IMG/VR virus record: IMGVR_UViG_2675903609_000006
DNA: 43,172 nucleotides
From: a virus
Taxonomy: Duplodnaviria > Heunggongvirae > Uroviricota > Caudoviricetes
Strand: one strand, 5' to 3'
The position numbers and the translations under genes are program-made. The notes under the pieces were generated by a model. That model searched no databases and was not told where the DNA came from. It worked only from the letters and a program-made list of their open reading frames with translations. Shown piece by piece: positions 27,226-43,172 of the stretch. Position 1 is the first letter of the stretch. Every line of letters starts with the position of its first letter.

Positions 27226-27563
27226 AACCAACAGGAGGCGGAAATGAGCTTCTTTAAATTTATTATAAGATTCTTATCCGCCTTCGCTTTTGGGTTTGCA
27301 ATATTTTACTTTGCATCTAGAAAAATTGACTTAAGTGGCATATCTACTCCATGGTCATTAATAACCTTATTAGCATTCCCTTTCAGTTATTGTATCGCAG
27401 CCTTTTTTAAAGTTTCTGAAGCCGACGAAAACACATCACTATCAGATAATGAACTAAGAAGATTACGACCGATAATTGATGCAAAAAAAAGACATCTTGG
27501 ATTTCTTATCTTTTTTTATCTTATTGCTGCTTTTTCAGGAGCAATTGGGGTAATGACTCCAAC

Positions 27564-28067
27564 TTATTGATAGTGTTTTATGTTCAGATAATGCCCGATG
27601 ACTTTGTCATGCAGCTCCACCGATTTTGAGAACGACAGCGACTTCCGTCCCAGCCGTGCCAGGTGCTGCCTCAGATTTAGGTTATGCCGCTCAATTCGCT
27701 GCGTATATCGCTTGCTGATTACGTGCAGCTTTCCCTTCAGGCGGGATTCATACAGCGGCCAGCCATCCGTCATCCATATCACCACGTCAAAGGGTGACAG
27801 CAGGCTCATAAGACGCCCCAGCGTCGCCATAGTGCGTTCACCGAATACGTGCGCAACAACCGTCTTCCGGAGACTGTCATACGCGTAAAACAGCCAGCGC
27901 TGGCGCGATTTAGCCCCGACATAGCCCCACTGTTCGTCCATTTCCGCGCAGACGATGACGTCACTGCCCGGCTGTATGCGCGAGGTTACCGACTGCGGCC
28001 TGAGTTTTTTAAGTGACGTAAAATCGTGTTGAGGCCAACGCCCATAATGCGGGCTGTTGCCCGGCAT
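27564..28067 (-). CDS. insB: IS1 transposase InsB
   Basis: 167-aa product recognised as IS1 InsB. Confidence 0.9.
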
Positions 28068-28261
28068 CCAACGCCATTCATGGCCATATCAATGATTTTC
28101 TGGTGCGTACCGGGTTGAGAAGCGGTGTAAGTGAACTGCAGTTGCCATGTTTTACGGCAGTGAGAGCAGAGATAGCGCTGATGTCCGGCGGTGCTTTTGC
28201 CGTTACGCACCACCCCGTCAGTAGCTGAACAGGAGGGACAGCTGATAGAAACAGAAGCCAC
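27986..28261 (-). CDS. insA: IS1 InsA
   Basis: 91-aa product recognised as IS1 InsA ([32 protein letters not shown]...). Confidence 0.9.
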
Positions 28262-28516
28262 TGGAGCACCTCAAAAACACCATCATACACTAAATCAGTA
28301 AGTTGGCAGCATCACCAGCAATTGGTATGTTCGCTATTTCCAGAGAGTCGATAGTTTATCTATATTTTATATCTGCTTGTGGAGGAGGCATTGCTGCTGC
28401 AATGTATTCTTTTTTCTTTATCAGCTCAATAAACAGCGAAATACAGAGATTTAAAAGCATCTTATTACACAGAGCTGAAGCGAATAAAAAAACGAAAGAA
28501 TTTATAGACTCATTAA

Positions 28517-28548
28517 ACAAAAAGGCGGATTGAAATCCGCCTTTTTGT
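28517..28548. terminator. Bidirectional rho-independent terminator shared by Q and the cargo module
   Basis: Hairpin AAAAGGCGGAT-TGAA-ATCCGCCTTTT flanked by A-runs and T-runs, between convergent stops at 28533 and 28554. Confidence 0.6.
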
Positions 28549-28553
28549 TTTCT

Positions 28554-28931
28554 TCAATCCATTTCTAATCTAATATCCAACATTGAAAGACAACCTTCGA
28601 TAAATCCTTCAGCCATTTTAATCTCAATGCGTATAAGTTTCTCGTCCTTTTTCTTTTCTTTAGCAATTTTTCTCTTAGAAAGACCATACAAATAATGTGC
28701 TACTAGTAACGAATGCTCATAAGGTTTTTTCTTCTTCAGCCGAGCAAGGCACCCCTCAATGATTAATCCGTCGGCATCAGTACATGAGAGTCTGTTTTTA
28801 CCTGTTTGTGGTAAAAGCCCTTTAAATCCTGCTGCGATTGGAGAATAGTCAACGCCTGAATTATCACTAGCAGCCCATCCCCCCCAACGCTCAAGAACCA
28901 TCTGAATATCACGCATCAAATTTCTCCACAA
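28554..28931 (-). CDS. Late-gene antiterminator Q (QuuD-like)
   Basis: 125 aa resembling recalled E. coli DLP12 QuuD (MRDIQMVLERWG.WAA...IAAGFKGL...ARLKK...ALDIRLEMD). Confidence 0.75.
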   Translation of the reverse strand: MWRNLMRDIQMVLERWGGWAASDNSGVDYSPIAAGFKGLLPQTGKNRLSCTDADGLIIEGCLARLKKKKPYEHSLLVAHYLYGLSKRKIAKEKKKDEKLIRIEIKMAEGFIEGCLSMLDIRLEMD

Positions 28932-28933
28932 AA

Positions 28934-29929
28934 TCAGGCCAGCACGCCAGTTGCCAGCGCACGATCGATAAAACGAAATATCAGCTCCAGCTGAGAGCCA
29001 TACTTCTCTTCAAATGCCACGGTATCCGCATGCAGCTCGTCGTGATGCTTTCTGCACAAAGGCAACACAAAGAGGTCATGCGCTTTTGTACCCATTCCCC
29101 CCTGACCGTGGCCTATCAGGTGGTGGGGATCATCAGCAGGTTTTCCACAACATGCGCACGGCTGCGTCTTAACCCAACGCGTGTACTTTTCGTTAACCCA
29201 GCGGCGACGTTTTGGGCGTAACATAAAAGAGTCCGGCGACTCCGGATCCACTTTCAGCGCCAGCACCTTTTTTGCCTTATCCTGGATGATGCTGGTGGCA
29301 GGAACCGAAGGCACAAGGTCACTTTCCCGGGTGACAGACGGCACAACAGGCTTTGGTAATCTCAGTGCCTTACGGGCTGCACTTTCCGGTAAGGCATCCG
29401 CCAGGTCATTACGAACCAGCCACCAGCACAGTTCCGGCATTGTCACAACGTGACTATCATCAAAACCGAGATCCCGACGCACAACAGACAACACCCAGCG
29501 GGCACAGTTATCCGTTGCCATTGATTCCAGCCGTTCCGTGAACTGATCGCGCAGCTGGTTATCGCAGTGCCAGCACAGACGGATTGCGCCCGGAGCGTGT
29601 CGCATTGTGGTCATGTTCTCGCTGTGCCAGTCGGAATGAGGCCACTGGCAGCCTTTTTCACGAAGTAACCAGCTTTCAAGACATTCCACGCCACCAGCAC
29701 GACGGATCACTGCCTCATTGCGGAACACGGCCCGAACGGCAGGATCATCCGCCAGCGGTTGTGATGCCGCCGGAACGGCACCGCTGGCGAAAGATGAATA
29801 ACGTTCCGGCTCAGGCTCCAGCAGGACACGCCCCTGCATAAACAGGGGCATCAGCTCTGAACCAGGTCTGAACAATACGATCACCATACGCGGGGCAATT
29901 TCAGGGGTCAGTAGTGCTCTCACAGTCAC
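28934..29929 (-). CDS. DUF968-family phage protein
   Basis: 331 aa with C-terminal Cys/His-rich motif (CACCGKPADDPHHL...LPLCRKHHDELH). Confidence 0.55.
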   Translation of the reverse strand: MTVRALLTPEIAPRMVIVLFRPGSELMPLFMQGRVLLEPEPERYSSFASGAVPAASQPLADDPAVRAVFRNEAVIRRAGGVECLESWLLREKGCQWPHSDWHSENMTTMRHAPGAIRLCWHCDNQLRDQFTERLESMATDNCARWVLSVVRRDLGFDDSHVVTMPELCWWLVRNDLADALPESAARKALRLPKPVVPSVTRESDLVPSVPATSIIQDKAKKVLALKVDPESPDSFMLRPKRRRWVNEKYTRWVKTQPCACCGKPADDPHHLIGHGQGGMGTKAHDLFVLPLCRKHHDELHADTVAFEEKYGSQLELIFRFIDRALATGVLA

Positions 29930-29930
29930 C

Positions 29931-30758
29931 TCAATGAACGGTATCGAGCAGCTTTAACAGCTCAGGGAATCGGGATTCGAAGAAATGCGGCTGCGTCTCG
30001 CGCGGATTTGCGGGACTGGTGATGTTCTTGCCGAACATGCAGCCTTTCGCTGTCAGCGACCAGAATTTTTTGATGTTGTTAATCGAGGTACGGCTGTATC
30101 GTTCGCGCTGCTCGACGATCCCCAGCTTCACCATCTGGTGATATGCCTGATTAGCCGTCAGGCGGATACCATACTGCTTCAGCAGTGCACTCAGCGACAG
30201 CGTAGGGCGGCTTGAACCATCTGGCGCATCAGCAGGTGCATCAATGGCATAGATCGGCATAAGTTCAGGAAGACCAGCTACCTTTGATAATTTCTGGTAT
30301 GCACCAAGTTTCGAGGAGTTTGACAGATTTAGAGTCTTTGCTGCTGATTCAAGCAGAATGACCCCGGATTTAATTTTGTCGGATGTGGTTTCTTCTGGTG
30401 ATGAATTATGAAGCGCATCAAAAGTACGTATCACTTTTAAGCTGAATGCCGGGCTGATCCACATTGCATATGCATAGACCAGCTCTTTACAGACATACGT
30501 CCCACCATTGCGCCCCTGAATGGTGATGACAGGAATACTACGGGAATCTCCCGTAGTTTCTTCTTCCAATAATTCCACAAGAGCCTTCGTTTCAGGACGA
30601 CGCATAAACTCGTGAACTTCCAGCGAACGGGAGGAGCGATTCTCACCAGCGGCAAGAAGAGCAGCTTTCTGAAGGTCGTTAAGACAGTAGTTAGATTCGA
30701 AGTACTGGCGCACAGAAACGCCATCAATTACAAGCAACTGATTCATTGGTTTCTCCAC
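29931..30758 (-). CDS. KilA-N domain protein
   Basis: N-terminal KilA-N signature (GGTYVCKELVYAYAMWISPAF). Confidence 0.65.
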   Translation of the reverse strand: MEKPMNQLLVIDGVSVRQYFESNYCLNDLQKAALLAAGENRSSRSLEVHEFMRRPETKALVELLEEETTGDSRSIPVITIQGRNGGTYVCKELVYAYAMWISPAFSLKVIRTFDALHNSSPEETTSDKIKSGVILLESAAKTLNLSNSSKLGAYQKLSKVAGLPELMPIYAIDAPADAPDGSSRPTLSLSALLKQYGIRLTANQAYHQMVKLGIVEQRERYSRTSINNIKKFWSLTAKGCMFGKNITSPANPRETQPHFFESRFPELLKLLDTVH

Positions 30759-30908
30759 AAATTTTTATCCACGAGCGGGACTGCACTCCCTTTTCGTTGA
30801 TGCAGGATGAACTTACTGCGATTTTTAATAGTTATCAAGGATATACTGTTCATAAATACAGTATCTTTAACGAGGTAATACCCAAATTTAGGGTGTTGCT
30901 CAATTCCG

Positions 30909-31304
30909 TTACCGAGTTGCTAATTTGCAACTCGCTTTTTCGTACTTACTGATAGTGATCTCGACCTTCCCCTCCGGGATAACCGGTCCCCACTCCACCA
31001 GCATTCTTTTCACCTGACTGTCGTCTTCCCACACACCCGCGTGGGTCAGGGCGTCAAACAGCGCCTTGTTATAGTTGTCCAGATCGCGGATCCGGTTATC
31101 CGGAGGAAACAAAACGATCTCCACTGAAGCAGGTGCCGACGTTGGTTTCGGCAGACGACGTAACTGCTCAACTATTGCTGCGCACGCCGCGCTCTGGAAT
31201 TTTCACCCCGCCGCGCTTATCAGGCTCTTACCAGCAAACGCCCCTTTGTTGGGGTGTCGCCAGTACGTGTTCACGCTGGGCGGAAAAGGAAGGATCGGCT
31301 TCAT
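30909..31304 (-). pseudogene. rusA: RusA-like Holliday junction resolvase with in-frame TGA
   Basis: ATG at 31304 encodes MKPILPFPPSVNTYWRHPNKG..., then a TGA at 31203-31205; the same frame continues into the ORF-track ORF 30909-31124 (RDLDN...FDALT...WEDDSQV). Confidence 0.55.
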
Positions 31305-31627
31305 ACTTTCAGGCCCCTCTCATGTAACCAGTGGGCTGCACGCAGCCTGGCGTTTTCCTCACCGGCAAGCAGTGAGCGGATAATCCCGACCGCCTCGCTG
31401 TCGTCGTCCTTCACCACGGTATGAAGCGTGATCCCCCGGGCCACACCACGCTTTATCGTGATGACGCCTTTTTTCTCCAGTGCGCGAAGATGCTCCACCG
31501 CTGCATTCACCGAACGGTATCCCAGCATGGTTGCCACCTCCTGATTGGTTGGCGGGAAGCCACGTTCTTTCTGATAAGAAATCAGCATATCCAGCACCTG
31601 CTGCTGGCATTGAGTTAACGTCGTCAT
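31301..31627 (-). CDS. LexA-type winged-helix DNA-binding protein without a peptidase domain
   Basis: GFPPTNQEVATMLGYRSVNAAVEHLRALEKKGVITIKRGVARGI resembles the LexA N-terminal domain; start taken at the internal Met overlapping the upstream stop. Confidence 0.5.
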   Translation of the reverse strand: MTTLTQCQQQVLDMLISYQKERGFPPTNQEVATMLGYRSVNAAVEHLRALEKKGVITIKRGVARGITLHTVVKDDDSEAVGIIRSLLAGEENARLRAAHWLHERGLKV

Positions 31628-32121
31628 TACGCCCCCACGTAATTCCCTGACAGATACCACTCATCACTCGATACAGCGCGCTTGCTGCTTTTCCGTAAAC
31701 ACTGCTCACGACGCGCCAGAAAATTGTTTCGTTCTGGCTGGGAGTGGCTTTCACGGAATGCCGCCATCCACACCGTTGCAGCACGACGGTATAAGCCCCT
31801 GGACTCCAGTTCTTCAGCCTGGCGGGTCAGGCACAAAATCTCCCGCGGGTCGTTAGTGCCGACATAGAAATTGCGCACAGGTCTGGTTTCACGAACTGGT
31901 TGCGGTTCCGCCTCCTGCGCTCTCTCAGTCAGGCGCGGGAAATGTCTGCGTGTATCCCCTTCACAACGGTGAGCCACACGCCCACTCTGACGTAACTTGC
32001 TTGCTGACTGCAGAACGCGCTGCCGTGAGTAACCTGCAAAAGCATCCGCAATGTCTCCGGAAGTACACCCCGGATGGGCTTCAATGTATTTCTGAACTTC
32101 ATTCAAAAGACTCATGATCAC
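31627..32121 (-). CDS. PerC-like regulator (putative)
   Basis: C-terminal motif LESRGLYRRAATVWMAAF resembles the recalled PerC-family signature. Confidence 0.4.
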   Translation of the reverse strand: MIMSLLNEVQKYIEAHPGCTSGDIADAFAGYSRQRVLQSASKLRQSGRVAHRCEGDTRRHFPRLTERAQEAEPQPVRETRPVRNFYVGTNDPREILCLTRQAEELESRGLYRRAATVWMAAFRESHSQPERNNFLARREQCLRKSSKRAVSSDEWYLSGNYVGA

Positions 32122-33059
32122 CCCCTGAATCCTGCCGGGATCTGGCTGTAGTCCACGTTGTCGTAACTGGCTTTGAAGTACGGGTCTTCGCGTTTTTCTG
32201 TGTACGTGCTGACGGACGGCGATAAGCGCAGGGAAAGCTCATCCCATTTTTCCCGCAGCTTCGACGGGCTGAGCACGTTACGGCACCAGAACGGATCGCG
32301 GCTGACGCGGCTGTACATCTCGCAGATTTGTTTGTGAGTACGACCATCCTGCACACACATCAGGCGAATTTCGTTTGCCCAGGCTGTCCAGTTCGGTTCT
32401 TTGGGACGAACCACCTCGCCGTCACATTCGGCGGCCTGCTCGTACAGGGCGATGATTTTTTTCCAGAGCCACTGTGCGCAGGTCAAATCATCCTGCGTTC
32501 CCCACTGGCGCTTTTTAGGGCTGAATACAACCGCATCAGGATGGCGAGTTAAAAACTCCTGTTCAGCCGTCTGCGTGTCCGGTTGCGAAGCGTCCGGACG
32601 AGAAGTTTTTTTATCTGACGGATCATGTTTTGATTTTACTGACGGATCCCCGCCAGATTCTGACGGGTGAAAACCCGCTTTTTTGCCAGATTTCGACGCA
32701 TCAAATTTTGACGGGTCAGATTTTGATGCGTCAGATTTTGACGGGTCAGAATCTGACAGTTGAGAAAATGCCGCTGCCTGAAGCTTCGCAACGTTAAGCT
32801 GATAAACATTCGACGCATTGCGGTTACCCTGGCGACGCGCCTTACGCGTTAACCAGCCTTCTGCTTCCAGCCGTGCGATAGCCGTTCTGACGGTACTCAT
32901 CCCCGCGCCAATCTGACGGGCAATGGTTTCAATTGATGGCCAGCACACACCTTCGTCATTACTGAAATCAGCCAGGCGGGCCATAATTGCCACGCTGGAT
33001 AATTTCATGCCTGACGCTGCGCAACCATCCCATACATAGCCGGTTAATTTAGTGCTCAT
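32118..33059 (-). CDS. Replication initiator (O-like) with internal origin iterons
   Basis: N-terminal HTH, a central repetitive linker (SDSDPSKSDASKSDPSKFDASKSG) encoded by the iteron array, and a C-terminal domain. Confidence 0.6.
   Translation of the reverse strand: MSTKLTGYVWDGCAASGMKLSSVAIMARLADFSNDEGVCWPSIETIARQIGAGMSTVRTAIARLEAEGWLTRKARRQGNRNASNVYQLNVAKLQAAAFSQLSDSDPSKSDASKSDPSKFDASKSGKKAGFHPSESGGDPSVKSKHDPSDKKTSRPDASQPDTQTAEQEFLTRHPDAVVFSPKKRQWGTQDDLTCAQWLWKKIIALYEQAAECDGEVVRPKEPNWTAWANEIRLMCVQDGRTHKQICEMYSRVSRDPFWCRNVLSPSKLREKWDELSLRLSPSVSTYTEKREDPYFKASYDNVDYSQIPAGFRG
32611..32762. repeat. Iteron array (about eight ~15-bp direct repeats, consensus AGATTTTGACGGGTC) - candidate replication origin
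   Basis: Four contiguous 15-bp units at 32703-32762 plus degenerate copies upstream, all inside the initiator gene. Confidence 0.6.
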
Positions 33060-33407
33060 GACCGACCTCTATTTCCCTGAATTTACGACGAAACTGTTCG
33101 AGCGGGCTGAAGCACTCATGCTCATAGCCTTCACGGAGGTAGATAACCCGTTGTGTTTCCGGCTCCCAACGAATGACTCTGACGGGCACTCCGTAGTGAT
33201 CTTTGAACCAGCGATTAACTTGTCGCAAAGGACTGTCTCCTTCTGCCGGTTGAAATCCCCCACAGCCCACTCTGCAAAGCTGTGGGTTACAATTTCCCTG
33301 TCACCTGGTACATTCACTGCATAGCAATACTCCACCTTCGCTTTTCCACCCGGTACAGGAAGCGCAATCAGTTGCGAGCGACGGTAGTGTGTTGTTAAAC
33401 TGTTCAT
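33049..33407 (-). CDS. Hypothetical protein, reading frame ambiguous
   Basis: Two overlapping ORFs (33069-33407 and 33049-33270) in different frames each look plausible; the longer fits the gene array positionally. Confidence 0.3.
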
Positions 33408-33967
33408 GCGTTAGTTTCTCCACAGTCACGACACGCCACGGCGCCCGGAGCTGCACACTCGCGGGCGTCATTACTTTCTGAAATGCAAAAAATTTTGTAG
33501 ACCAGTGCTGCATGCTCCTGCAGCTTCGAAATTGAGAGGTACAGCTCGTCGTTAATTGCTGTCTTCTCATGCGGTTCCACTACACCGTCTTCGATTGCTG
33601 AACGAATCTGTTTTGAATAACTGCCGATCTGTTCAATGACTTCCAGCAGACGCTGGTTAATATCGGCGTTGTCCACATCCTCGACGTCAGGAAGAGACAC
33701 AAAGACGCCATTTGCAGACTGCGCCACAGCGTCAGCAATGAAGTGAGTTCCACCAGCACGTTGCAAAATCATTGCCCATCCCAGCGGGAAAATCTGATCG
33801 CCATCGGCACGAAGGCGGTTAAATAATGCGTTCTCTGTTACATCCAGCCAGTCAGCTGCTTCAGCGTAACCACCCGGCAACTTTGCGATAGTTTTTCTGA
33901 CAGCTTTCACGTACCACTCAGGCTGTTTTTCTACTTTCCAGTGATGCTTACCCACGGTTAGCCTCAT
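33404..33967 (-). CDS. CII-like regulatory protein (putative)
   Basis: 187 aa immediately downstream of cro; tentative family resemblance only. Confidence 0.4.
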
Positions 33968-33998
33968 CGTTCTGTGGTTAAAAATTGAAAGTGTTCTG

Positions 33999-34199
33999 CT
34001 AATCTTTCGGATAGATATCCGGTCTTAAGTCAGATTTCGTAATTGCACCTGACGTGCATTGCTCAAGTTTTTTAGCCAGCACAAAACTGGCTTTTTTATA
34101 GCCATTGAAAACCAGCCGTAAGTAGCCAGGTGTTGAGCCAACTTTTCCGGCCAACTCGCCCTGCTGTTCTTTGGTTAAAGAGTCCCAATACGCTTTCAT
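33999..34199 (-). CDS. cro: Cro-like repressor (Cro/YdaS-type HTH)
   Basis: Divergent from the repressor gene; start taken at MKAYWDS because the ORF-track start overlaps an operator. Confidence 0.7.
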   Translation of the reverse strand: MKAYWDSLTKEQQGELAGKVGSTPGYLRLVFNGYKKASFVLAKKLEQCTSGAITKSDLRPDIYPKD

Positions 34200-34204
34200 A
34201 CAAT

Positions 34205-34274
34205 ATGTACCTCCGGTGTACATATTACATGATTAAAATGAACCTTCAAGATACTTGTACCTTAACGGTACAAG
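34205..34274. promoter_or_regulatory. Divergent immunity promoter region with two palindromic operators
   Basis: ATGTAC-CTCCGGT-GTACAT (34205-34223) and CTTGTACC-TTAA-CGGTACAAG (34254-34274) between cro and the repressor gene. Confidence 0.55.
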
Positions 34275-34289
34275 GGTTTTAATTTCGTT

Positions 34290-34964
34290 ATGAAAACAAT
34301 CCATGACATCCGGCGGTCTAACGCCAGAAAACTGAGAGATGGTGTTGGCGGGAATTCTTCCTTTGCCACTATGATTGATCGCGAGCCAACCCAGACCAGC
34401 AGGTTTATGGGAGATGGTGCTACTAAAAATATCGGTGACAGCATGGCACGACACATCGAAAAATGTTTCGACCTGCCTGTTGGATGGCTCGATCAAGAAC
34501 ACCAGACAACGAACATCACAAAAAAACCTGATGTTTCAATCACTAATAAACAAATCACATTAGTCCCTGTCATATCATGGGTACAGGCCGGAGCATGGAA
34601 AGAAGTTGGATATTCTGAGGTTGATTTGAGCACAGCAGAAACGTATCCCTGCCCTGTACCCTGTGGGGAAATGACTTATATCTTGCGGGTGATAGGTGAT
34701 TCAATGATTGATGAGTACCGCCCGGGAGACATGATTTTTGTCGATCCTGAAGTACCAGCCTGCCACGGTGACGACGTTATTGCATTGATGCACGATACAG
34801 GTGAAACCACCTTCAAAAGGTTGATAGAAGATGGGACACAGCGTTATCTCAAAGCGTTAAACCCAAACTGGCCTGAGCCTTACATTAAGATCAACGGTAA
34901 TTGCTCTATAATTGGAACTGTGATTTTCTCAGGAAAACCAAGAAGATACAAAATCAAAGCCTAA
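34290..34964 (+). CDS. cI: CI-type repressor with S24 (LexA-like) autopeptidase domain
   Basis: C-terminal domain with VIGDSM nucleophile and downstream Lys (FKRL), similar to recalled P22 C2. Confidence 0.85.
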   Translation: MKTIHDIRRSNARKLRDGVGGNSSFATMIDREPTQTSRFMGDGATKNIGDSMARHIEKCFDLPVGWLDQEHQTTNITKKPDVSITNKQITLVPVISWVQAGAWKEVGYSEVDLSTAETYPCPVPCGEMTYILRVIGDSMIDEYRPGDMIFVDPEVPACHGDDVIALMHDTGETTFKRLIEDGTQRYLKALNPNWPEPYIKINGNCSIIGTVIFSGKPRRYKIKA

Positions 34965-34975
34965 TCAATGTTTAT

Positions 34976-35000
34976 GAACCTGCTTCGGCAGGTTTTTTTA
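34976..35000 (+). terminator. Rho-independent terminator after the repressor gene
   Basis: AACCTGC-TTCG-GCAGGTT hairpin followed by TTTTTTT. Confidence 0.65.
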
Positions 35001-35003
35001 TAC

Positions 35004-35031
35004 TTGACAATGTACCCATGAGATACATAAT
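35004..35031 (+). promoter_or_regulatory. Near-consensus sigma70 promoter (pL-like candidate)
   Basis: TTGACA (35004-35009), 16-nt spacer, CATAAT (35026-35031); two ATGTACCC direct repeats overlap the spacer and the start region. Confidence 0.5.
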
Positions 35032-35120
35032 GTACCCAAGAGAAACAACGAACAGGCAGGACGCCCACGAAGTAGCCGCCTGGGGCATATAAAGTCTAGG
35101 GTGATTCGTTAGCAACAAAA

Positions 35121-35153
35121 AAGCGCCCTACAGGACGCTTAGCTCTTTAACAA
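35121..35153 (+). promoter_or_regulatory. Hairpin plus boxA-like motif (candidate antitermination element)
   Basis: AAGCGCC-CTACA-GGACGCTT hairpin, then GCTCTTTAACAA (35142-35153), which matches the recalled rrn boxA. Confidence 0.4.
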
Positions 35154-35198
35154 TCTGGTCCCCATCAACAAGTAACTGATAACTTGAGGAGGTGTGAA

Positions 35199-35405
35199 AT
35201 GCACAAAACAGAACCCAAAATCGTCGCGCCCGGATACACAAATGAGGAAATTTACGAGTGGATGGCAAAGAAGCTGGCAGCTATAAACCAGCTTCGTGAA
35301 GTGCTGTCTTATCGACAGGAAACAATAGACTCCTTAAAAAAACTGGATCAGGAAATCACGGTTTTATCACAGGATGTTACTTTAGATATTGTGCAGACAA
35401 ATTAG
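35199..35405 (+). CDS. Hypothetical protein (68 aa)
   Basis: ATG preceded by GAGGAGG; helical, coiled-coil-like product; not Arg-rich. Confidence 0.4.
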   Translation: MHKTEPKIVAPGYTNEEIYEWMAKKLAAINQLREVLSYRQETIDSLKKLDQEITVLSQDVTLDIVQTN

Positions 35406-35811
35406 GATCCCATTCATTTTCGTCAAAATCATCAAAGTGATGAATTTGTGATCTCCAGTCTCGATAATCTAAAAATTTCTGGGCGGTTACGCTTATTTTA
35501 TCAAGTGTGAGTTCATCCTGAATTGAAAGAAGAAGTTCATCAAATTTCATCTCATTAATCTGTTTTGGCATCCAGTGATGCTTCATCAGAATAAGGTGAA
35601 CCAGAGCCTTTTTCCCATTCAACTGATTATAGGGAGTGCCGAATTTCTTCCGGTGCTCATGTAAGACAAGGTCCAGAAGAGTAAGTAATGTTGCCCTTGA
35701 TTCCACTTTGCTTATTTCGACTGATGACACTACCCCACTGATTTCAATGCCCCGATACTTTCCAACATTTTCACAGTGGGATTTGTACAGCGTGTAGATA
35801 TTACCGGACAT
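35377..35811 (-). CDS. Hypothetical protein (144 aa), AT-rich cargo gene
   Basis: Convergent with and overlapping the 68-aa ORF by 29 nt; markedly lower GC than flanks; no family recognised. Confidence 0.5.
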   Translation of the reverse strand: MSGNIYTLYKSHCENVGKYRGIEISGVVSSVEISKVESRATLLTLLDLVLHEHRKKFGTPYNQLNGKKALVHLILMKHHWMPKQINEMKFDELLLSIQDELTLDKISVTAQKFLDYRDWRSQIHHFDDFDENEWDPNLSAQYLK

Positions 35812-36140
35812 TTCTTTTCCTTTTGCGTTGTTGGGGATAACCAGATTAACCGAATCCTTGTTGTTGGGGAATAACCAGGTCCACCTCGCCTGATGTGGCT
35901 AAAAGCAGGCACATAACAGCTAAGTATTTTTAACCAGAGAGAATCCTTAGCGTTGTGGTGAATGCGGCTCAGCGCACGCGGGTTAAGGTTGAGGCTGACA
36001 GTCGACCTTCTGTGGATACCCACCCGTCTGGTGTGCAACCTTCGCCAGGCACCGGGAGGCACCCGGCACCACAACTTTATGCTGTGTGTAGTCCTGGAGG
36101 TACCAGTTTGTACCCTTGCTTCCGGCTGGTACCGTCCTTT

Positions 36141-36240
36141 TTACAAAACAGAGAAGAGCATCACCGGACGACGGGCTCATAACCCAATCCATCCGGGCGG
36201 CTGCCACCGCAGGTGTTCTTCTCTGTTTTGTGGAGAAACT
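36141..36240 (+). other. Long inverted repeat (~17-bp arms, ~60-nt spacer) in a non-coding gap
   Basis: ACAAAACAGAGAAGAGCA (36143-36160) pairs with TGTTCTTCTCTGTTTTGT (36223-36240), one mismatch. Confidence 0.5.
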
Positions 36241-36279
36241 AATCGGCCTTGCAGGGTCGATATGATGAGGAGCAGCAAA

Positions 36280-36642
36280 ATGGCTAGCGAACGCAGTACT
36301 GATGTGCAGGCATTTATCGGGGAGCTGGACGGCGGCGTATTTGAAACCAAAATCGGCGCAGTTCTCAGTGAAGTCGCTTCCGGTGTGATGAACACGAAAA
36401 CCAAAGGTAAGGTCTCACTCAACCTGGAAATCGAACCATTTGATGAGAACCGTGTGAAAATCAAACACAAACTCTCATATGTTCGCCCGACTAACCGCGG
36501 GAAAATTTCCGAAGAAGACACCACCGAAACGCCGATGTATGTCAATCGCGGTGGTCGCCTGACTATTCTGCAGGAAGACCAGGGACAGTTACTGACTCTT
36601 GCCGGTGAACCTGACGGAAAACTCCGCGCAGCAGGTCGTTAA
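36280..36642 (+). CDS. Hypothetical early protein (YfdP-like)
   Basis: Start taken at MASERSTD with upstream GAGGAG; the ORF-track ORF extends further upstream through non-coding-looking sequence. Confidence 0.5.
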   Translation: MASERSTDVQAFIGELDGGVFETKIGAVLSEVASGVMNTKTKGKVSLNLEIEPFDENRVKIKHKLSYVRPTNRGKISEEDTTETPMYVNRGGRLTILQEDQGQLLTLAGEPDGKLRAAGR

Positions 36643-36707
36643 TATCGTTTTTAATTAACTGATTATTTATCTCATCACTGAATATCTTTATATAGTGAGG
36701 ACTTATT

Positions 36708-37532
36708 ATGTCTCAGAACTTAGACGCAACCGCAATTAATCAAATCCATGCCCTTATTTCTGCTCAGGGTGTTAATGAAATTATCAGTAAGATTGGTGCC
36801 GATGCTGTGGCATTGCCTGAGAATTTCCGCATTCATGATCTGGAAAAATTTAATTTAAATCGCTTCCGTTTCCGTGGTGCGCTTTCCACTGCCAGCATCG
36901 ATGACTTTACCCGTTATTCTAAAGATCTTGCAGATGAAGGCACCCGCTGCTTTATCGATGCTGATAATATGCGTGCCGTCAGTGTGCTTAACCTGGGTAC
37001 TATTGATGAACCAGGTCACGCAGATAACACCGCCACACTCAAACTGAAAAAGACAGCACCGTTCTCTGCTCTGTTGTCTGTTAACGGCGAGCGTAACTCC
37101 CAGAAGTCACTGGCAGAATGGATTGAAGACTGGGCCGACTATCTTGTGGGCTTTGATGCTAATGGTGACGCTATTCAGGCAACAAAAGCGGCTGCGGCTG
37201 TCCGTAAAATCACGATTGAAGCAAACCAGACCGCTGATTTTGAAGATAATGACTTCAGCGGCAAACGCTCCCTGATGGAGTCTGTCGAAGCGAAGACCAA
37301 AGACATTATGCCAGTGGCATTTGAATTTAAATGCGTTCCGTTTGAAGGTCTGAAAGAACGTCCGTTTAAATTACGCCTCAGTATTATCACTGGCGATCGT
37401 CCTGTACTGGTTCTGCGCATTATTCAGCTGGAGGCGGTGCAGGAAGAAATGGCTAACGAATTTCGTGATCTGCTTGTTGAGAAATTCAAGGACAGCAAAG
37501 TAGAAACCTTTATTGGTACTTTCACCGCCTGA
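36708..37532 (+). CDS. DUF2303-family protein (YfdQ-like)
   Basis: 274 aa; resembles recalled CPS-53 YfdQ. Confidence 0.65.
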
Positions 37533-37659
37533 TTTCATTACTGCAAATGCCCCTGCGGGGGCATTTATGGAAACGTAATTTACTCAATAATCGCCGGATG
37601 GTGAGGGATTCTTTTTACCAGAATTCAGCGCGGTGCAGCGCATATACGTGGAGAACAAA

Positions 37660-38196
37660 ATGTCATTTATTAAAACTTTTTCCGGGAAGCATTTTTATTA
37701 TGACAGGATAAATAAAGACGACATCGATATTAACGATATCGCGGTTTCCCTTTCAAATATCTGTCGCTTTGCCGGTCATCTTTCGCACTTCTACAGCGTC
37801 GCCCAACATGCGGTTCTTTGCAGCCAGTTGGTGCCGCAGGAATTTGCTTTTGAAGCGTTAATGCATGATGCAACAGAAGCGTATTGCCAGGACATTCCCG
37901 CACCACTGAAACGCCTTCTTCCTGACTATAAACAAATGGAAGAAAAAATAGACGCCGTAATCCGTGAGAAATACGGGTTACCCCCAGTTATGAGTACGCC
38001 CGTGAAATATGCCGATCTCATCATGCTGGCAACCGAACGCCGCGATCTCGGGCTTGATGATGGCTCTTTCTGGCCTGTACTGGAAGGTATCCCGGCAACA
38101 GAGATGTTCAACGTGATTCCACTGGCACCGGGCCATGCCTACGGGATGTTTATGGAACGCTTTAACGAGTTATCGGAGTTACGCAAATGCGCATGA
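37660..38196 (+). CDS. HD-domain phosphohydrolase (YfdR-like)
   Basis: H...HD motif (LMHDATEAY); start taken at MSFIKTF with an upstream GGAG. Confidence 0.6.
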   Translation: MSFIKTFSGKHFYYDRINKDDIDINDIAVSLSNICRFAGHLSHFYSVAQHAVLCSQLVPQEFAFEALMHDATEAYCQDIPAPLKRLLPDYKQMEEKIDAVIREKYGLPPVMSTPVKYADLIMLATERRDLGLDDGSFWPVLEGIPATEMFNVIPLAPGHAYGMFMERFNELSELRKCA

Positions 38197-38549
38197 ATGT
38201 TTTCGAAATGGAAGGGTTTCTTCGTGGGAGATGTGTACCGCGAGATCTGAAAGTAAATGAAACAGATGCTGAATACCTGGTGCGTAAATTCGATGCGCTT
38301 GAAGCTAAATGTGCAGCACAGGAAAACAAAGTAATACCAGTGTCAACTGAACTGCCACCAGCAAATGAAAGTGTTTTGTTATTCGATGCTAACGGAGAAG
38401 GCTGGCTAATTGGCTGGCGTTCTCTCTGGTACACCTGGGGACAAAAAGAAACCGGAGAATGGCAGTGGACATTTCAGGTCGGGGACCTTGAAAACGTCAA
38501 TATCACTCACTGGGCAGTAATGCCAAAAGCACCGGAGGCTGGAGCATAA
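38187..38549 (+). CDS. DUF551-like protein (YfdS-like)
   Basis: 120 aa, Trp-rich C-terminal domain; position in the early operon. Confidence 0.45.
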   Translation: MRMNVFEMEGFLRGRCVPRDLKVNETDAEYLVRKFDALEAKCAAQENKVIPVSTELPPANESVLLFDANGEGWLIGWRSLWYTWGQKETGEWQWTFQVGDLENVNITHWAVMPKAPEAGA

Positions 38550-38854
38550 TGACCACTTTTACCGACAAAGAACTGATTAAAGAAATTAAAGAGCGTATCA
38601 GCAGCCTTGACGTGCGAGACGATATTGAGCGCCGTGCTTATGAAATCGCACTCCTATCTCTGGAAGTAGAACCAGATGAACGCGAAGCTTATGAATTATT
38701 CATGGAAAAGCGTTTCGGTGACTTAGTAGATCGTCGGAGAGCAAAAAACGGCGATAACGAATACATGGCATGGGATATGACTCTCGGTTGGATCGTCTGG
38801 CAGCAACGAGCTGGTATCCATTTTTCAACAATGTCACAGCAAGAGGTGAAATAA
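38549..38854 (+). CDS. Hypothetical early protein (YfdT-like)
   Basis: 101-aa ORF with ATGA-type coupling to the upstream gene. Confidence 0.45.
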   Translation: MTTFTDKELIKEIKERISSLDVRDDIERRAYEIALLSLEVEPDEREAYELFMEKRFGDLVDRRRAKNGDNEYMAWDMTLGWIVWQQRAGIHFSTMSQQEVK

Positions 38855-39204
38855 TGGAGCCATACAGCCTCACACTCGATGAGGCCTGTCATTTTCTCAA
38901 GATATCCAGACCGACTGCCATTAACTGGATACGCACAGGGCGTCTTCAGGCAACACGCAAAGATCCCACTAAGAATAAATCTCCTTACCTCACAACACGA
39001 CAAGCCTGCATTGCGGCTCTTCAGTCTCCGCTGCATACTGTCCAGGTGAGCGCGGGTGATGGCATAACAGAGGAAAGAAAATGTCACTCTTCCGCAGAGG
39101 TGAAATATGGTACGCCAGTTTCACATTGCCGAACGGTAAAAGATTTAAACAGTCTCTTGGAACAAAGGACAAAAGGCAGGCGACAGAACTCCATGACAAG
39201 CTAA
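38854..39204 (+). CDS. Excisionase-like HTH protein (3' end uncertain)
   Basis: ATG at 38854 preceded by AAGAGG; N-terminal HTH-like segment; frame overlaps the int start by ~120 nt. Confidence 0.4.
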
Positions 39205-40244
39205 AGGCTGAAGCATGGCGGGTCAGCAAACTTGGTGAAATACCTGATATAACGTTCGAGGAAGCGTGTGTCAGGTGGCTTGAAGAGAAAGCACATAAAA
39301 AATCACTGGACGATGACAAAAGCCGGATCGGATTCTGGCTTCAACATTTCGCAGGAATACAACTAAGAGACATTACTGAATCAAAAATTTATTCAGCAAT
39401 GCAGAAAATGACGAACCGGCGTCATGAGGAAAACTGGAAACTCAGGGCAGAATCATGCAGAAAAAAAGGGAAACCTGTTCCAGAATACACGCCAAAACCA
39501 GCGTCCGTTGCAACGAAGGCTACGCATCTTTCATTTATAAAGGCCCTACTAAGAGCCGCAGAGCGTGAATGGAAAATGCTGGATAAGGCACCAATTATTA
39601 AAGTGCCTCAACCAAAGAATAAACGGATCCGCTGGCTGGAGCCCCATGAAGCACAAAGGCTGATTGATGAATGTCCGGAGCCATTAAAGTCTGTTGTTGA
39701 ATTTGCACTGGCAACAGGCTTAAGACGCTCGAACATCATCAACCTTGAATGGCAACAAATAGATATGCAGCGCCGGGTGGCATGGATAAACCCGGAAGAG
39801 AGTAAATCAAACCGCGCAATTGGCGTTGCGCTGAATGATACTGCATGTCGCGTATTGAAAAAACAAATCGGGAATCATCACCGTTGGGTATTTGTGTACA
39901 AGGAAAGCTGTACCAAACCAGACGGAACGAAAGCGCCAACAGTAAGGAAGATGCGGTATGACGCAAACACAGCCTGGAAAGCGGCGCTGAGACGGGCTGG
40001 TATTGATGATTTCAGATTTCACGACTTGAGACACACCTGGGCAAGTTGGCTGGTTCAAGCCGGAGTCCCGTTGTCAGTTTTACAGGAAATGGGAGGCTGG
40101 GAGTCTATCGAAATGGTTCGTCGATATGCTCACCTTGCACCTAATCACCTTACCGAACACGCACGGCAAATAGACTCGATCCTGAACCCATCGGTCCCAA
40201 ATTTGTCCCAGTCAAAAAATAAGGAAGGTACTAATGATGTGTAA
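39081..40244 (+). CDS. int: Tyrosine integrase (site-specific recombinase)
   Basis: 387 aa with catalytic motifs ([24 protein letters not shown]...RYAH); ends 15 nt before the tRNA. Confidence 0.9.
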
Positions 40245-40258
40245 CTTATTGATTTTAA

Positions 40259-40304
40259 TGGTGCCGATAATAGGAGTCGAACCTACGACCTTCGCATTAC
40301 GAAT
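40259..40304. repeat. Proximal attachment-site core (3' 46 nt of the tRNA)
   Basis: Identical to 433-478. Confidence 0.8.
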
Positions 40305-40334
40305 GCGCTGCTCTACCAACTGAGCTATATCGGC
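40259..40334 (-). tRNA. thrW: tRNA-Thr (anticodon CGT) - integration target
   Basis: Reverse complement reads GCCGATATAGCTCAGTTGGTAGAGCAGCGCATTCGTAATGCGAAGGTCGTAGGTTCGACTCCTATTATCGGCACCA (76 nt, CCA end at 40259). Confidence 0.9.
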
Positions 40335-40448
40335 CCTGAAAGGACATGTTCACGAACGTGAATCACGGTGGACAAGGTTAAAACTAACCGGGCGATGCGT
40401 CAATGGCCTTGTGAATCAAATGGCTACTTTTGCATCACCCGGTTTTAT

Positions 40449-41765
40449 TTACGCACGAATGGTGTAATCACCAATGCCGATCCACTTGTAAGTGGTCAGT
40501 GCTTCCAGCCCCATTGGGCCACGCGCGTGGAGTTTTTGTGTGCTTACCGCCACTTCCGCACCCAGACCAAACTGGCCGCCGTCGGTAAAACGCGTAGAGG
40601 CGTTAACGTAAACAGCGGACGAATCCACTTCGTTAACAAAACGCTGGGCGTTGCGCATATCGCGGGTCAGGATCGCATCGGAGTGTTGTGTGCCGTGTTC
40701 ACGAATATGGGCGATGGCATCGTCAAGATCGCTGACGATTTTGACGTTCAAATCTAATGACAGAAACTCATCGTCATACTCTTCGGCTTTAACCGCCACC
40801 ACCTTCGCAGGGCCTGCCTGCAACTGTGTCAGCGCAGCTGCATCTGCGTGTAATGTCACGCCGCTTTCCGCCATTTGTTTGCTTAATGCGGGCAGGAAGC
40901 TATCGGCGATGTTTTTATTCACCAGCAACGTTTCAACCGTATTACATGTGCTCGGACGCTGAGTTTTCGCGTTGACGATCACTTTTAATGCTTCAGCGAT
41001 CTCTGCACTTTCATCAACGTAAATATGGCATACGCCTATACCACCTGTGATCACCGGGATTGTCGACTGTTCACGGCACAGTTTATGCAAACCAGCGCCA
41101 CCACGCGGGATCAGCATGTCGATGTATTTATCCATACGCAGCATTTCACTGACCAGCGCACGGTCAGGATTATCAATCGCCTGCACGGCACCCGCCGGTA
41201 AGCCACAGGATTTCAGGGCGTCCTGAATCACCGCCACCGTTGCCGCGTTAGTGCGACAGGTTTCTTTACCACCACGCAGGATCACCGCATTACCGGTTTT
41301 CAGGCACAGCGAAGCGACATCAACCGTCACGTTCGGGCGCGCTTCATAAATCACGCCAATAACCCCCAGCGGTACGCGACGACGCTCAAGACGCAGGCCG
41401 CTGTCCAGTACGCCGCCATCGANNNNNNNNNNNNNNNNNNNNNNNNNNNNNNNNNNNNNNNNNNNNNNNNNNNNNNNNNNNNNNNNNNNNNNNNNNNNNN
41501 NNNNNNNNNNNNNNNNNNNNNNNNNNNNNNNNNNNNNNNNNNNNNNNNNNNNNNNNNNNNNNNNNNNNNNNNNNNNNNNNNNNNNNNNNNNNNNNNNNNN
41601 NNNNNNNNNNNNNNNNNNNNNNNNNNNNNNNNNNNNNNNNNNNNNNNNNNNNNNNNNNNNNNNNNNNNNNNNNNNNNNNNNNNNNNNNNNNNNNNNNNNN
41701 NNNNNNNAGAGTTGCGCTAATTTATACGAGGCTTGCTTCGCGGCAATGCCCATTTGTTCCAGCAT
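40449..41765 (-). CDS. proA: Gamma-glutamyl phosphate reductase (interrupted by an N-run)
   Basis: N-terminus [19 protein letters not shown] and C-terminal conserved region; N-run 41423-41707 inside. Confidence 0.9.
41423..41707. other. Run of N (285 nt) - gap or masked sequence
   Basis: Literal n characters. Confidence 1.
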
Positions 41766-41776
41766 CGGCCAGCTCC

Positions 41777-42943
41777 TTAACGGGTAATCATGTCATCACG
41801 GTGAACGGCAACCGGGCCGTATTCATATCCCAGTATTGCATCAATTTCTTGCGAGTGGTGTCCGGCAATACGGCGTAATGCATCGCTGTTGTAACGACTG
41901 ACACCGTGGGCGATATCGCGACCTTCGAGGTTGCAAATGCGGATGACTTCACCACGCGAGAAATTGCCAGTAACGCTTTTAATGCCTTTCGGCAACAGGG
42001 AGCTGCCGCGTTCCAGAATGGCGGCCGTNNNNNNNNNNNNNNNNNNNNNNNNNNNNNNNNNNNNNNNNNNNNNNNNNNNNNNNNNNNNNNNNNNNNNNNN
42101 NNNNNNNNNNNNNNNNNNNNNNNNNNNNNNNNNNNNNNNNNNNNNNNNNNNNNNNNNNNNNNNNNNNNCCTGGGCATGGAACAGCGTACCGACGGAAATG
42201 CCTTCCATCACATCACCAATAACGCCCGGCTTGCTGCCCGCGGCAATAATGGTGTCGATACCCGCACGGCAAGCCACGTCAGCGGCCTGCAATTTAGTAC
42301 TCATGCCGCCAGTTCCGAGGCCTGAAACGCTGTCACCGGCAATCGCGCGCAGTGCGTCATCAATGCCGTAAACATCTTTAATCAGTTCTGCCTGCGGATT
42401 TCTGCGCGGATCAGCGGTATACAAACCTTTTTGATCGGTCAGCAGCAACAGTTTATCGGCACCCGCCAGAATCGCCGCCAGCGCAGAAAGGTTATCGTTA
42501 TCGCCGACCTTAATCTCTGCCGTAGCGACAGCATCGTTCTCATTGATTACCGGAACGATATTGTTATCGAGCAACGCACGCAGGGTGTCGCGGGCGTTCA
42601 GGAAGCGTTCACGGTCTTCCATATCAGCACGGGTCAGCAGCATTTGCCCGACGTGAATGCCATAAATCGAAAACAGCTGTTCCCACAGTTGAATCAGTCG
42701 ACTCTGCCCTACCGCCGCCAGCAGTTGTTTCGAGGCGATAGTCGCTGGCAGTTCCGGGTAACCCAGGTGCTCACGTCCGGCGGCGATCGCGCCCGACGTC
42801 ACAATAACAATCCGATGCCCGGCGGCATGTAACTGCGCGCACTGGCGAACAAGTTCAACGATATGGGCACGGTTCAGACGGCGCGATCCGCCTGTTAGCA
42901 CACTGGTGCCGAGTTTTACCACCAGCGTCTGGCTGTCACTCAT
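41777..42943 (-). CDS. proB: Glutamate 5-kinase (interrupted by an N-run)
   Basis: Start at [19 protein letters not shown] (ATG at 42943), PUA-domain C-terminus ending DDMITR; N-run 42029-42168 inside. Confidence 0.9.
42029..42168. other. Run of N (140 nt) - gap or masked sequence
   Basis: Literal n characters. Confidence 1.
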
Positions 42944-43118
42944 GATTCTCTGCCATTCAATTTTAGGAAAAATGATATCAAACGAACGTTTTAGCAGGAC
43001 TGTCGTCGGTTGCCAACCATCTGCGAGCAAAGCATGGCGTTTTGTTGCGCGGGATCAGCAAGCGTAGCGGCAGTTGTTTACGCTTTTATTACAGATTTAA
43101 TAAATTACCACATTTTCA

Positions 43119-43172
43119 GGTAATGACTCCAACTTACTGATAGTGTTTTATGTTCAGATAATGCCCGATGAC
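43119..43172 (-). mobile_element. IS1 terminal 54 bp (second copy, continues beyond the window)
   Basis: GGTAATGACTCCAACTTACTGATAGTGTTTTATGTTCAGATAATGCCCGATGAC, the same end and orientation as the IS1 at 27549. Confidence 0.9.

Follow-up and report, generated by a model that had tools for sequence, protein, structure and literature searches.

The window analysed here, a stretch of 43,172 nucleotides of a tailed-phage record (IMG/VR record IMGVR_UViG_2675903609_000006), holds a complete prophage whose early-left (PL) operon carries, between the repressor gene and xis/int, a block of five small genes, yfdP-yfdQ-yfdR-yfdS-yfdT. Among the roles proposed for this block, the one that we regard as somewhat probable is that of an early-left device that damps host replication, in a prophage of the SfIV/SfV type that has an O-type initiator as its only replication gene, lacks recombination genes of its own (hereafter Rec-less) and probably relies on the RecBCD and RecA proteins of the host. 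Earlier papers have described both the binding of YfdR to DnaA and a class of lambdoid phages that are Rec-less and Chi-rich, and the block itself is already known and very common. What goes slightly beyond the literature consulted is the strict pairing of YfdP with YfdQ and their embedding in RecT or ERF recombination modules of distant phages.

A preliminary description of this DNA, made from its letters alone, had reported five small same-strand genes followed by an excisionase-like gene and int, and the open reading frames (ORFs) do lie in this way, the five spanning 36280-38854 and int adjoining a tRNA-Thr gene:

36280..36642, + strand: yfdP, 120 aa, the upstream partner of yfdQ
36708..37532, + strand: yfdQ, 274 aa, DUF2303
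37660..38196, + strand: yfdR, 178 aa, HD-domain phosphohydrolase, ATG start (the GTG-initiated ORF begins at 37633)
38187..38549, + strand: yfdS, 120 aa, with a C-terminal DUF551 domain; named "Eae protein" in related phages, including mEp460
38549..38854, + strand: yfdT, 101 aa, whose first 42 residues are common to Ea22-type proteins
38854..39204, + strand: excisionase of the P22 type (HTH_17, E=1.6e-08; phrog_2907 excisionase, E=1e-50)
39081..40244, + strand: tyrosine integrase of the P22/SfV type, 387 aa (Phage_integrase, E=6.5e-48)

Consecutive genes overlap by 10 nt (yfdR/yfdS), 1 nt (yfdS/yfdT) and 1 nt (yfdT/xis), and xis equals its P22 counterpart both in length (351 nt) and in its overlap with int, which in turn is as long as P22 int. 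The gene names had been missed in the preliminary description. Judged from identities of 98% (YfdP), 99% (YfdQ), 98% (YfdR), 96% (YfdS) and 96% (YfdT) to the proteins of the Escherichia coli K-12 element CPS-53, the five genes are the named yfdPQRST block, in the K-12 order. In CPS-53 (KpLE1, b2359-b2363) the same genes, with the same order and overlaps, belong to a decayed prophage at argW, with torI, the gene of a recombination directionality factor, coming next, whereas the block of the window belongs to an apparently complete prophage at thrW, with P22-type xis/int downstream and an intact repressor and PL region upstream.

The family calls made earlier for these proteins hold. YfdQ is a DUF2303 protein (PF10065, 309.7 bits for a cut-off of 26.6, profile positions 2-269 of 269, E=2e-92), and YfdS passes the DUF551 cut-off by a marginal score (PF04448, 22.2 against 22.0 bits, residues 50-117), with a match to phrog_583 at E=1e-82. 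The N-terminus of YfdT resembles the beginning of PhiR47_1's Ea22 gene. Of 5426 complete E. coli genomes, 3300 (~60%) have a megablast match to the 2.6-kb block, with a coverage of at least 80% in 1942, and YfdQ homologues were found in 184 phage records.

The best characterised protein of the block is YfdR, an ortholog of its K-12 namesake, with which it shares 174 of 178 residues and the gene context. It matches PHROG 318, annotated as "deoxyribonucleoside 5' monophosphate phosphatase", at E=1.4e-111, as well as the HD protein Atu1052 (PDB 2GZ4) at E=3e-14, and the HD motifs of 2GZ4 and of YfbR can be aligned to it. Its metal site (H50, H69-D70, E73, D78 and D119), whose loss the preliminary description had named as a finding that would speak against its HD proposal, is intact and invariant among 56 homologues of 43-100% identity; the protein has the H...HD...D residues typical of the superfamily of HD-domain metal-dependent phosphohydrolases. 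Although the PGAP pipeline calls it a "5'-deoxynucleotidase", YfdR stays under the curated cut-offs for YfbR-type proteins (NCBIfam equivalog NF003009, 20.5 against 122 bits; Pfam PF12917, 25.0 against 25.9), and by these scores it is an HD subfamily separate from YfbR. The E. coli protein YfbR (PDB 2PAQ) is likewise a small single-domain HD protein, and the equivalents of its E72 and D77 are present in YfdR, but the two are very distant in sequence (phmmer E=0.88) and binding to DnaA has been reported for YfdR, not for YfbR.

This binding came to light when yfdQRST was found as a multicopy suppressor of the over-initiation caused by hda-185 (Noguchi and Katayama 2016, PMC4776307). Inhibition of oriC in multicopy needs yfdQ, yfdR and either yfdS or yfdT, while yfdP is dispensable; K-12 YfdR binds directly to domain I of DnaA in a Phe46-dependent manner and competes moderately with DiaA and DnaB, and extracts inhibit oriC replication in vitro (PMC4776307). 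The authors drew a parallel with lambda P and mentioned homologues in SfV (PMC4776307), and the YfdR-DnaA result has been accepted in the later DnaA literature. Two unrelated proteins follow the same strategy, since both the phage protein lambda P and the host sporulation protein SirA of Bacillus subtilis bind DnaA and block host initiation, as reported for YfdR. SirA acts through the equivalent residue of DnaA domain I, whereas lambda P, which is unrelated to YfdR, targets domain III and doubles as a helicase loader. Unlike either of them, YfdR is an HD enzyme and requires in vivo YfdQ together with YfdS or YfdT.

The preliminary description had suggested another use for the HD enzyme, an action on nucleotides or signalling molecules against host defence. 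Taken as the degradation of deoxynucleoside triphosphates (dNTPs) or of signalling nucleotides, such as cyclic oligonucleotides or (p)ppGpp, this use now seems very unlikely. The HD superfamily does include enzymes acting on signalling nucleotides, the catalytic residues of YfdR are intact and invariant, and yfdR sits in an early operon. However, the nearest relatives of YfdR are small HD proteins of the COG1896/YfbR-like kind, as in PDB 2GZ4, and not the known families of cyclic-nucleotide hydrolases or dNTP triphosphohydrolases, and no linkage to known anti-defence genes was seen in the 163 loci described below. The five block proteins and four neighbouring ones match no PADLOC family at E<=0.01, a result that bears weakly on this idea because the PADLOC models describe defence and not anti-defence systems. 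As cited in PMC4776307, K-12 YfdR, 98% identical to ours, hydrolyses 5'-nucleoside and 5'-deoxynucleoside monophosphates only weakly and with affinities far below YfbR's (Zimmerman 2008). A weak phosphatase of monophosphates that binds DnaA is what has been reported, and the suggestion of an anti-defence or signalling-nucleotide role goes unsupported.

A second part of the reading given at the outset is the lack of recombination genes in the prophage around the block. As the preliminary description had it, Red- or Erf-type functions are missing, and their absence is borne out by every search made. When the main ORFs of 26140-40244 were scanned with PHROG and Pfam, no single-strand annealing protein (SSAP), recombination exonuclease, SSB or anti-RecBCD protein appeared; lambda Exo, Bet and Gam and P22 Erf, Abc1 and Abc2 gave no tblastn match anywhere in the window; and among the ORFs of at least 60 aa in 30001-43172 phmmer turned up nothing of these four kinds and no NinB either, with lambda Bet/Exo/Gam, P22 Erf/Abc1/Abc2, HK620 Sak4/SSB/NinB, RecT and YqaJ as seeds, six of them SSAPs. 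The RefSeq annotation of SfIV lists no recombination genes across the whole phage either. By these searches the early-left operon has none of the SSAPs (Bet/RecT, Erf, Sak or Sak4) by which a lambdoid Rec module is recognised. Only two recombination-related remnants can be pointed out, the first of which is the sole remnant of a resolvase and was the only match of the phmmer recombination seeds in the window:

30909..31304, - strand: rusA pseudogene (Holliday-junction resolvase), with an in-frame stop at codon 34; phmmer to HK620 RusA, E=1e-10
28934..29929, - strand: DUF968/HNH protein adjoining Q

The rusA remnant is unannotated in SfIV, whose relatives, mEp460 and PhiR47_1 among them, have an unbroken gene.

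A prophage of this kind could leave recombination to its host, and Chi sites (GCTGGTGG) are abundant in it: the window has 12, for 1.6 expected from shuffled sequences, 11 of them in the prophage. Ten of these 11 lie on the phage top strand and one on the bottom strand (window coordinates 14985, 20941, 21297, 24997, 25731, 29420, 29691, 30995, 33750 and 38355 on the - strand, and 29291 on the + strand; in SfIV coordinates the top-strand sites are 2432, 2788, 8744, 25140, 29745, 32500, 33804, 34075, 37756 and 38490). The 10 kb nearest the right cos end hold six of the ten top-strand sites. When compared with the permutations of its own letters, top-strand Chi ranks first of 168, occurring 10 times where the mean is 1.15 and the next-best reaches six, and the excess is therefore not just a matter of base composition or gene orientation.

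These features recall the Rec-less lambdoid phages of the "LLS functional type", which are rich in co-oriented Chi sites that become denser toward the right end (Genome Res 2025, PMC12315714). The early-left operons of this class often carry yfdP, yfdQ and the HD gene, although these genes are neither restricted to such phages nor universal; O-only replication modules occur in 34 phages of the panel, including LLS, which has no N homologue and grows better with RecBCD (PMC12315714). The window prophage resembles the LLS type in the absence of SSAP, nuclease, SSB and anti-RecBCD protein, in the presence of yfdP, yfdQ and the HD gene within its early-left operon, in its O-only replication and lack of an N homologue, and in its abundant co-oriented Chi sites toward the right end. 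The differences are of number and morphology, since LLS has 23 Chi sites and the window prophage 11, and SfIV, set against LLS, has a morphogenesis module for a contractile tail, with sheath and baseplate genes. By its gene content and Chi sites the window prophage fits this published class; dependence on RecBCD, shown for LLS only, would extend to it by analogy.

Taken together, these observations suggest the following course of events. Upon loss of the repressor, the early block would be expressed from PL, and YfdR, aided by YfdQ and by YfdS or YfdT, would damp new rounds of host chromosome replication. With host initiation damped, DnaB, DnaC and precursors could then remain available to the phage replicon, whose only replication gene is that of an O-type initiator, while the recombination-dependent steps would probably be left to host RecBCD and RecA at the co-oriented Chi sites, as in the LLS type.

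Several observations weigh against such a role, however. The effect on DnaA is seen only on overexpression, deletion of yfdQRST has no initiation phenotype, and the authors of the original study warned that the overexpression effect may be an artefact (PMC4776307). Neither YfdQ nor YfdS nor YfdT binds stably to YfdR or DnaA (PMC4776307), and the share of these three proteins in the effect is therefore unexplained. The effect also requires YfdS or YfdT, which most prophages with YfdP and YfdQ lack, and YfdR itself is absent from 13 of the 34 YfdQ lineages defined below; given these absences, inhibition of DnaA cannot be the conserved core function of YfdP-YfdQ. For the window prophage, we infer both that the block is expressed from PL and that RecBCD is relied upon. 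Finally, the density of Chi in the prophage is about one per 3.6 kb, modestly above the average of the E. coli chromosome, which is about one per 4.6 kb.

To see the block in a wider frame, loci with YfdQ relatives were collected from 80 genomes (one per species), 79 viral contigs and three annotated phages, and their ORFs were clustered; with the window, these make 163 loci, which clustering at 80% identity divides into 34 YfdQ lineages. The viral contigs come from a scan led by a distant sequence, one led by the window protein having given only ~100% identical E. coli prophages. In 33 of the 34 lineages, YfdQ is immediately preceded on the same strand by a YfdP homologue, the exception being cut by the end of its contig, and YfdR follows in 21. 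YfdS and YfdT occur in just four and two, respectively, of the 80 species-level loci, so that YfdP-YfdQ is the obligate conserved pair of the block, while YfdS and YfdT are variable accessories of the "ea" type. Upstream of the pair, these same 80 loci usually have a repressor (59), a CII-like protein (60) and an O-like protein (55).

The typical context in enterobacterial lambdoid phages is a repressor, a short leader, YfdP-YfdQ-YfdR and sometimes an Rv2179c-like 3'-5' exonuclease, with no SSAP; a 3'-5' exonuclease is found downstream in 25 of the 80 species-level loci. Within 4.5 kb of YfdQ, an SSAP occurs in four of the 34 lineages and any Rec-type gene in eight. It is in distant lineages that the pair is set among recombination genes, in the following gene orders, confirmed by Pfam and by a hidden Markov model of YfdP:

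Pontibacterium prophage (L088): RecT, RecE/YqaJ, YfdP, YfdQ
Kistimonas prophage (L079): lambda-Exo-like, YfdP, YfdQ, SSB
Hahella prophage (L085): Gp157, YfdP, YfdQ, SSB
ArgO145: Gam, RecT, Exo, SSB, YfdP, YfdQ
Vibrio podophage 34E29.1: ERF, YqaJ, DnaQ-like, YfdP, YfdQ, SSB
Xanthomonas phage Tenjo: YfdP, YfdQ, x, x, ERF, x, YqaJ, SSB

The preliminary description had presented the block as standing in the early operon instead of recombination genes. This is right as to the place, since in enterobacterial lambdoid phages the block does occupy a PL slot without an SSAP, the same mid-PL slot between the immunity region and xis/int that is taken by Red (exo-bet-gam) in lambda, erf-abc in P22 and Sak4-SSB-Abc2 in HK620. 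It does not stand as to substitution. The pair lies inside RecT or ERF modules of distant phages and is therefore a neighbour of recombination genes and not their replacement; that yfdP and yfdQ are no stand-in for recombination genes is a point also made in PMC12315714. YfdP and YfdQ have no relationship in sequence or fold to the lambda, P22 and HK620 modules, and their predicted folds appear dissimilar to those of solved SSAPs of the Rad52, Redbeta and ERF types. The gene contexts support the published argument that YfdP-YfdQ would be no cryptic annealase and leave room for an accessory role of the pair in single-stranded DNA or recombination transactions.

Two observations on these distant loci should be mentioned apart. 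A 251-aa protein in the Hahella prophage and a 213-aa protein in the Kistimonas prophage were considered as Sak-like SSAPs, and they were not counted as such; they have no Pfam match and their PHROGs are annotated as "exonuclease". In the Pontibacterium prophage, which comes from a metagenome-assembled genome, the gene at 4029-5615 of its locus encodes a RecE/YqaJ-type exonuclease with a C-terminal domain similar to the RecBCD inhibitor gp5.9 of T7 (PF25708, E=2e-13). This looks like a recombination nuclease fused to an anti-RecBCD module, placed directly upstream of YfdP-YfdQ.

The accessory role can be taken further, as a rival explanation in which YfdP-YfdQ, together in enterobacteria with YfdR or a DnaQ-like exonuclease, would serve recombination or single-stranded DNA transactions, and the effect on DnaA would be secondary. 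YfdP-YfdQ would act as a large oligomer on single-stranded DNA, on DNA ends or on SSB or SSAP and, in Rec-less phages, with host RecBCD/RecA or in replication restart. The obligate pairing in 33 of 34 lineages, the six distant gene orders and the frequent downstream 3'-5' exonuclease all speak for it, and so does a weak sensitivity of the yfdQ deletion to methyl methanesulfonate (MMS) and hydrogen peroxide (PMC4776307). The oligomer has some structural basis as well, since YfdQ matches by sequence the PDB entry 9O7M, "YfdQ Protein" (E=1.2e-44, a chain of 274 aa, ~40% identical), which contains 36 chains of one sequence and therefore represents a large homo-oligomeric assembly. This entry was absent from the results of both fold searches, and no associated paper was found. 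We think of this explanation as possible, though doubtful. A more specific form of it is a tentative proposal that we consider rather unlikely: YfdP-YfdQ might be an unrecognised fifth component of phage recombination/replication modules, an obligate two-protein, high-order oligomer with a fold unlike those of solved SSAP, SSB or Gam, acting on single-stranded DNA or DNA ends, or on SSB, SSAP or RecBCD-RecA, and kept by Rec-less, Chi-rich phages after the loss of annealase and exonuclease.

The stress phenotypes invite one further explanation, in which the block mainly benefits the lysogen, its low expression raising the tolerance to oxidative, acid or alkylation stress. Such a benefit would account for the persistence of the block in prophages that are themselves defective, CPS-53 being an example, and it agrees with the matches in ~60% of the complete E. 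coli genomes, cryptic prophages included. Besides the yfdQ deletion, with its sensitivities to MMS and hydrogen peroxide, deletion of CPS-53 or of yfdS is reported to raise the sensitivity to hydrogen peroxide (PMC4776307). However, all these phenotypes are weak, the genes lie behind a PL-like promoter under repressor control and should be silent in lysogens, and YfdP-YfdQ is kept in apparently lytic Vibrio and Xanthomonas phages, where there is no lysogen to profit. We consider a main role of this kind quite unlikely.

The remaining elements of the early region of the prophage are these:

32118..33059, - strand: O-like replication initiator (phrog_391, E=1.6e-135), with internal iterons at 32687-32761
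34290..34964, + strand: CI-type repressor with an S24 peptidase (Peptidase_S24, E=1.5e-26; phrog_4), co-directional with the early-left operon
34976..35031, + strand: terminator-like hairpin, then a PL-like promoter, TTGACA-16-CATAAT, at 35004-35031 (11 of 12 consensus matches); both are pattern matches only
35184..35405, + strand: first early-left ORF, 73 aa (phrog_1744, E=6e-34), with no Pfam or NCBIfam match
35377..35811, - strand: ECs1072-family ORF, 144 aa (NCBIfam NF033230, E=1.7e-46; phrog_5286)
35922..36144, + strand: STnc100-like structured RNA region upstream of yfdP (Rfam RF02076, full-length, 38.4 bits for a gathering score of 47, E=6.6e-07)

The iterons are four repeats spaced by 15 nt within the O-like gene. 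No P, helicase or loader (DnaB/DnaC-like) gene comes after it, the next genes encoding PerC-like proteins and proteins with a LexA DNA-binding domain; how O-only lambdoid replicons load their helicase has been described as unstudied (PMC12315714). The roles given to the hairpin and the promoter follow by analogy the cI-tIMM-PL layout of lambda and HK620. No homologue of lambda N was found in the window by tblastn or phmmer.

The ECs1072-family ORF holds the position that sieB has in lambda, P22 and HK620, an analogy of position only, given that tblastn and phmmer detect no similarity to SieB of lambda or P22. It has no PADLOC match, is present in five of the 80 species-level loci and may be a moron expressed in the lysogen. 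Downstream of the PL-like promoter, the leader of ~470 nt that precedes yfdP holds the STnc100-like match. In the deposited SfIV sequence, two overlapping hypothetical ORFs cover this stretch: gp35 and an extension of gp34 (yfdP), which is annotated as starting 318 nt further upstream, within what appears to be a non-coding leader. As a conserved leader RNA, STnc100 was rejected, since the match in the window is sub-threshold and 11 yfdPQ loci of other species all lacked one at the gathering score. With no N homologue at hand, the STnc100-like element could act within the leader, perhaps in the manner of put, and not as a free small RNA.

Direct repeats of 64 nt, at 415-478 and at 40241-40304, mark the two ends of the prophage, and the right-hand copy overlaps a tRNA-Thr(CGT) gene at 40259-40334:

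415..478, no strand: attL copy of the att/thrW repeat, marking the left end of the prophage (98% identity to 40241-40304 at a spacing of 39826 nt; direct repeat family D2)
40241..40334, - strand: attR repeat overlapping tRNA-Thr(CGT), thrW (att repeat; tRNA calls by ARAGORN and Rfam)

Over 35800-40300, its DNA is 99.9%, 99.1% and 97.9% identical to the Shigella phages SfIV, SfV and SfII, respectively. By these similarities the window is an SfIV-type serotype-converting prophage inserted at thrW. SfIV is a cos-packaging, serotype-converting phage of 39,758 bp; cos packaging, gtr genes and the att site at thrW are common to the window prophage and to SfIV, SfV and SfII (where the block corresponds to SfV orf29-31 and SfIV gp30-34), and from SfIV the window prophage differs in essentially nothing. 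The ORFs adjoining the tRNA-Thr(CGT) gene are read from their translations as proA and proB, which on this right flank are partly masked by runs of N (584 N in total).

Some other features of the window can be recorded. In the stretches 680-3268 and 3934-5086 (both + strand), at the left end of the prophage, the genes for O-antigen glucosylation, gtrA-gtrB-gtrIV, are separated from the tail-fibre assembly genes by an insertion sequence (ISEhe3 orfA and transposase in the SfIV annotation), an arrangement shared with the deposited SfIV. The slot that stx occupies in Stx phages, between Q and the lysis genes, contains a low-GC (~34%) pair of ORFs on opposite strands, encoding 361 and 108 aa (26140-27570, + strand, with 27549-28067 alongside); they match phrog_3482 and phrog_16807, and no Pfam, NCBIfam or PADLOC family. 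A transposase ORF (phrog_720) adjoins this pair, and a stretch of 54 nt, at 27549-27602, recurs at the right edge of the window, at 43119-43172; we take this repeat to be an IS1 terminus.

The interest of the block lies mostly in YfdP-YfdQ, which are among the commonest early genes of the temperate phages of enterobacteria and are found within recombination modules in distant phages. A role for this pair, together with a YfdR that redirects host replication when an O-only replicon is induced, would explain how phages of a large class can replicate without a helicase loader or a recombinase of their own.

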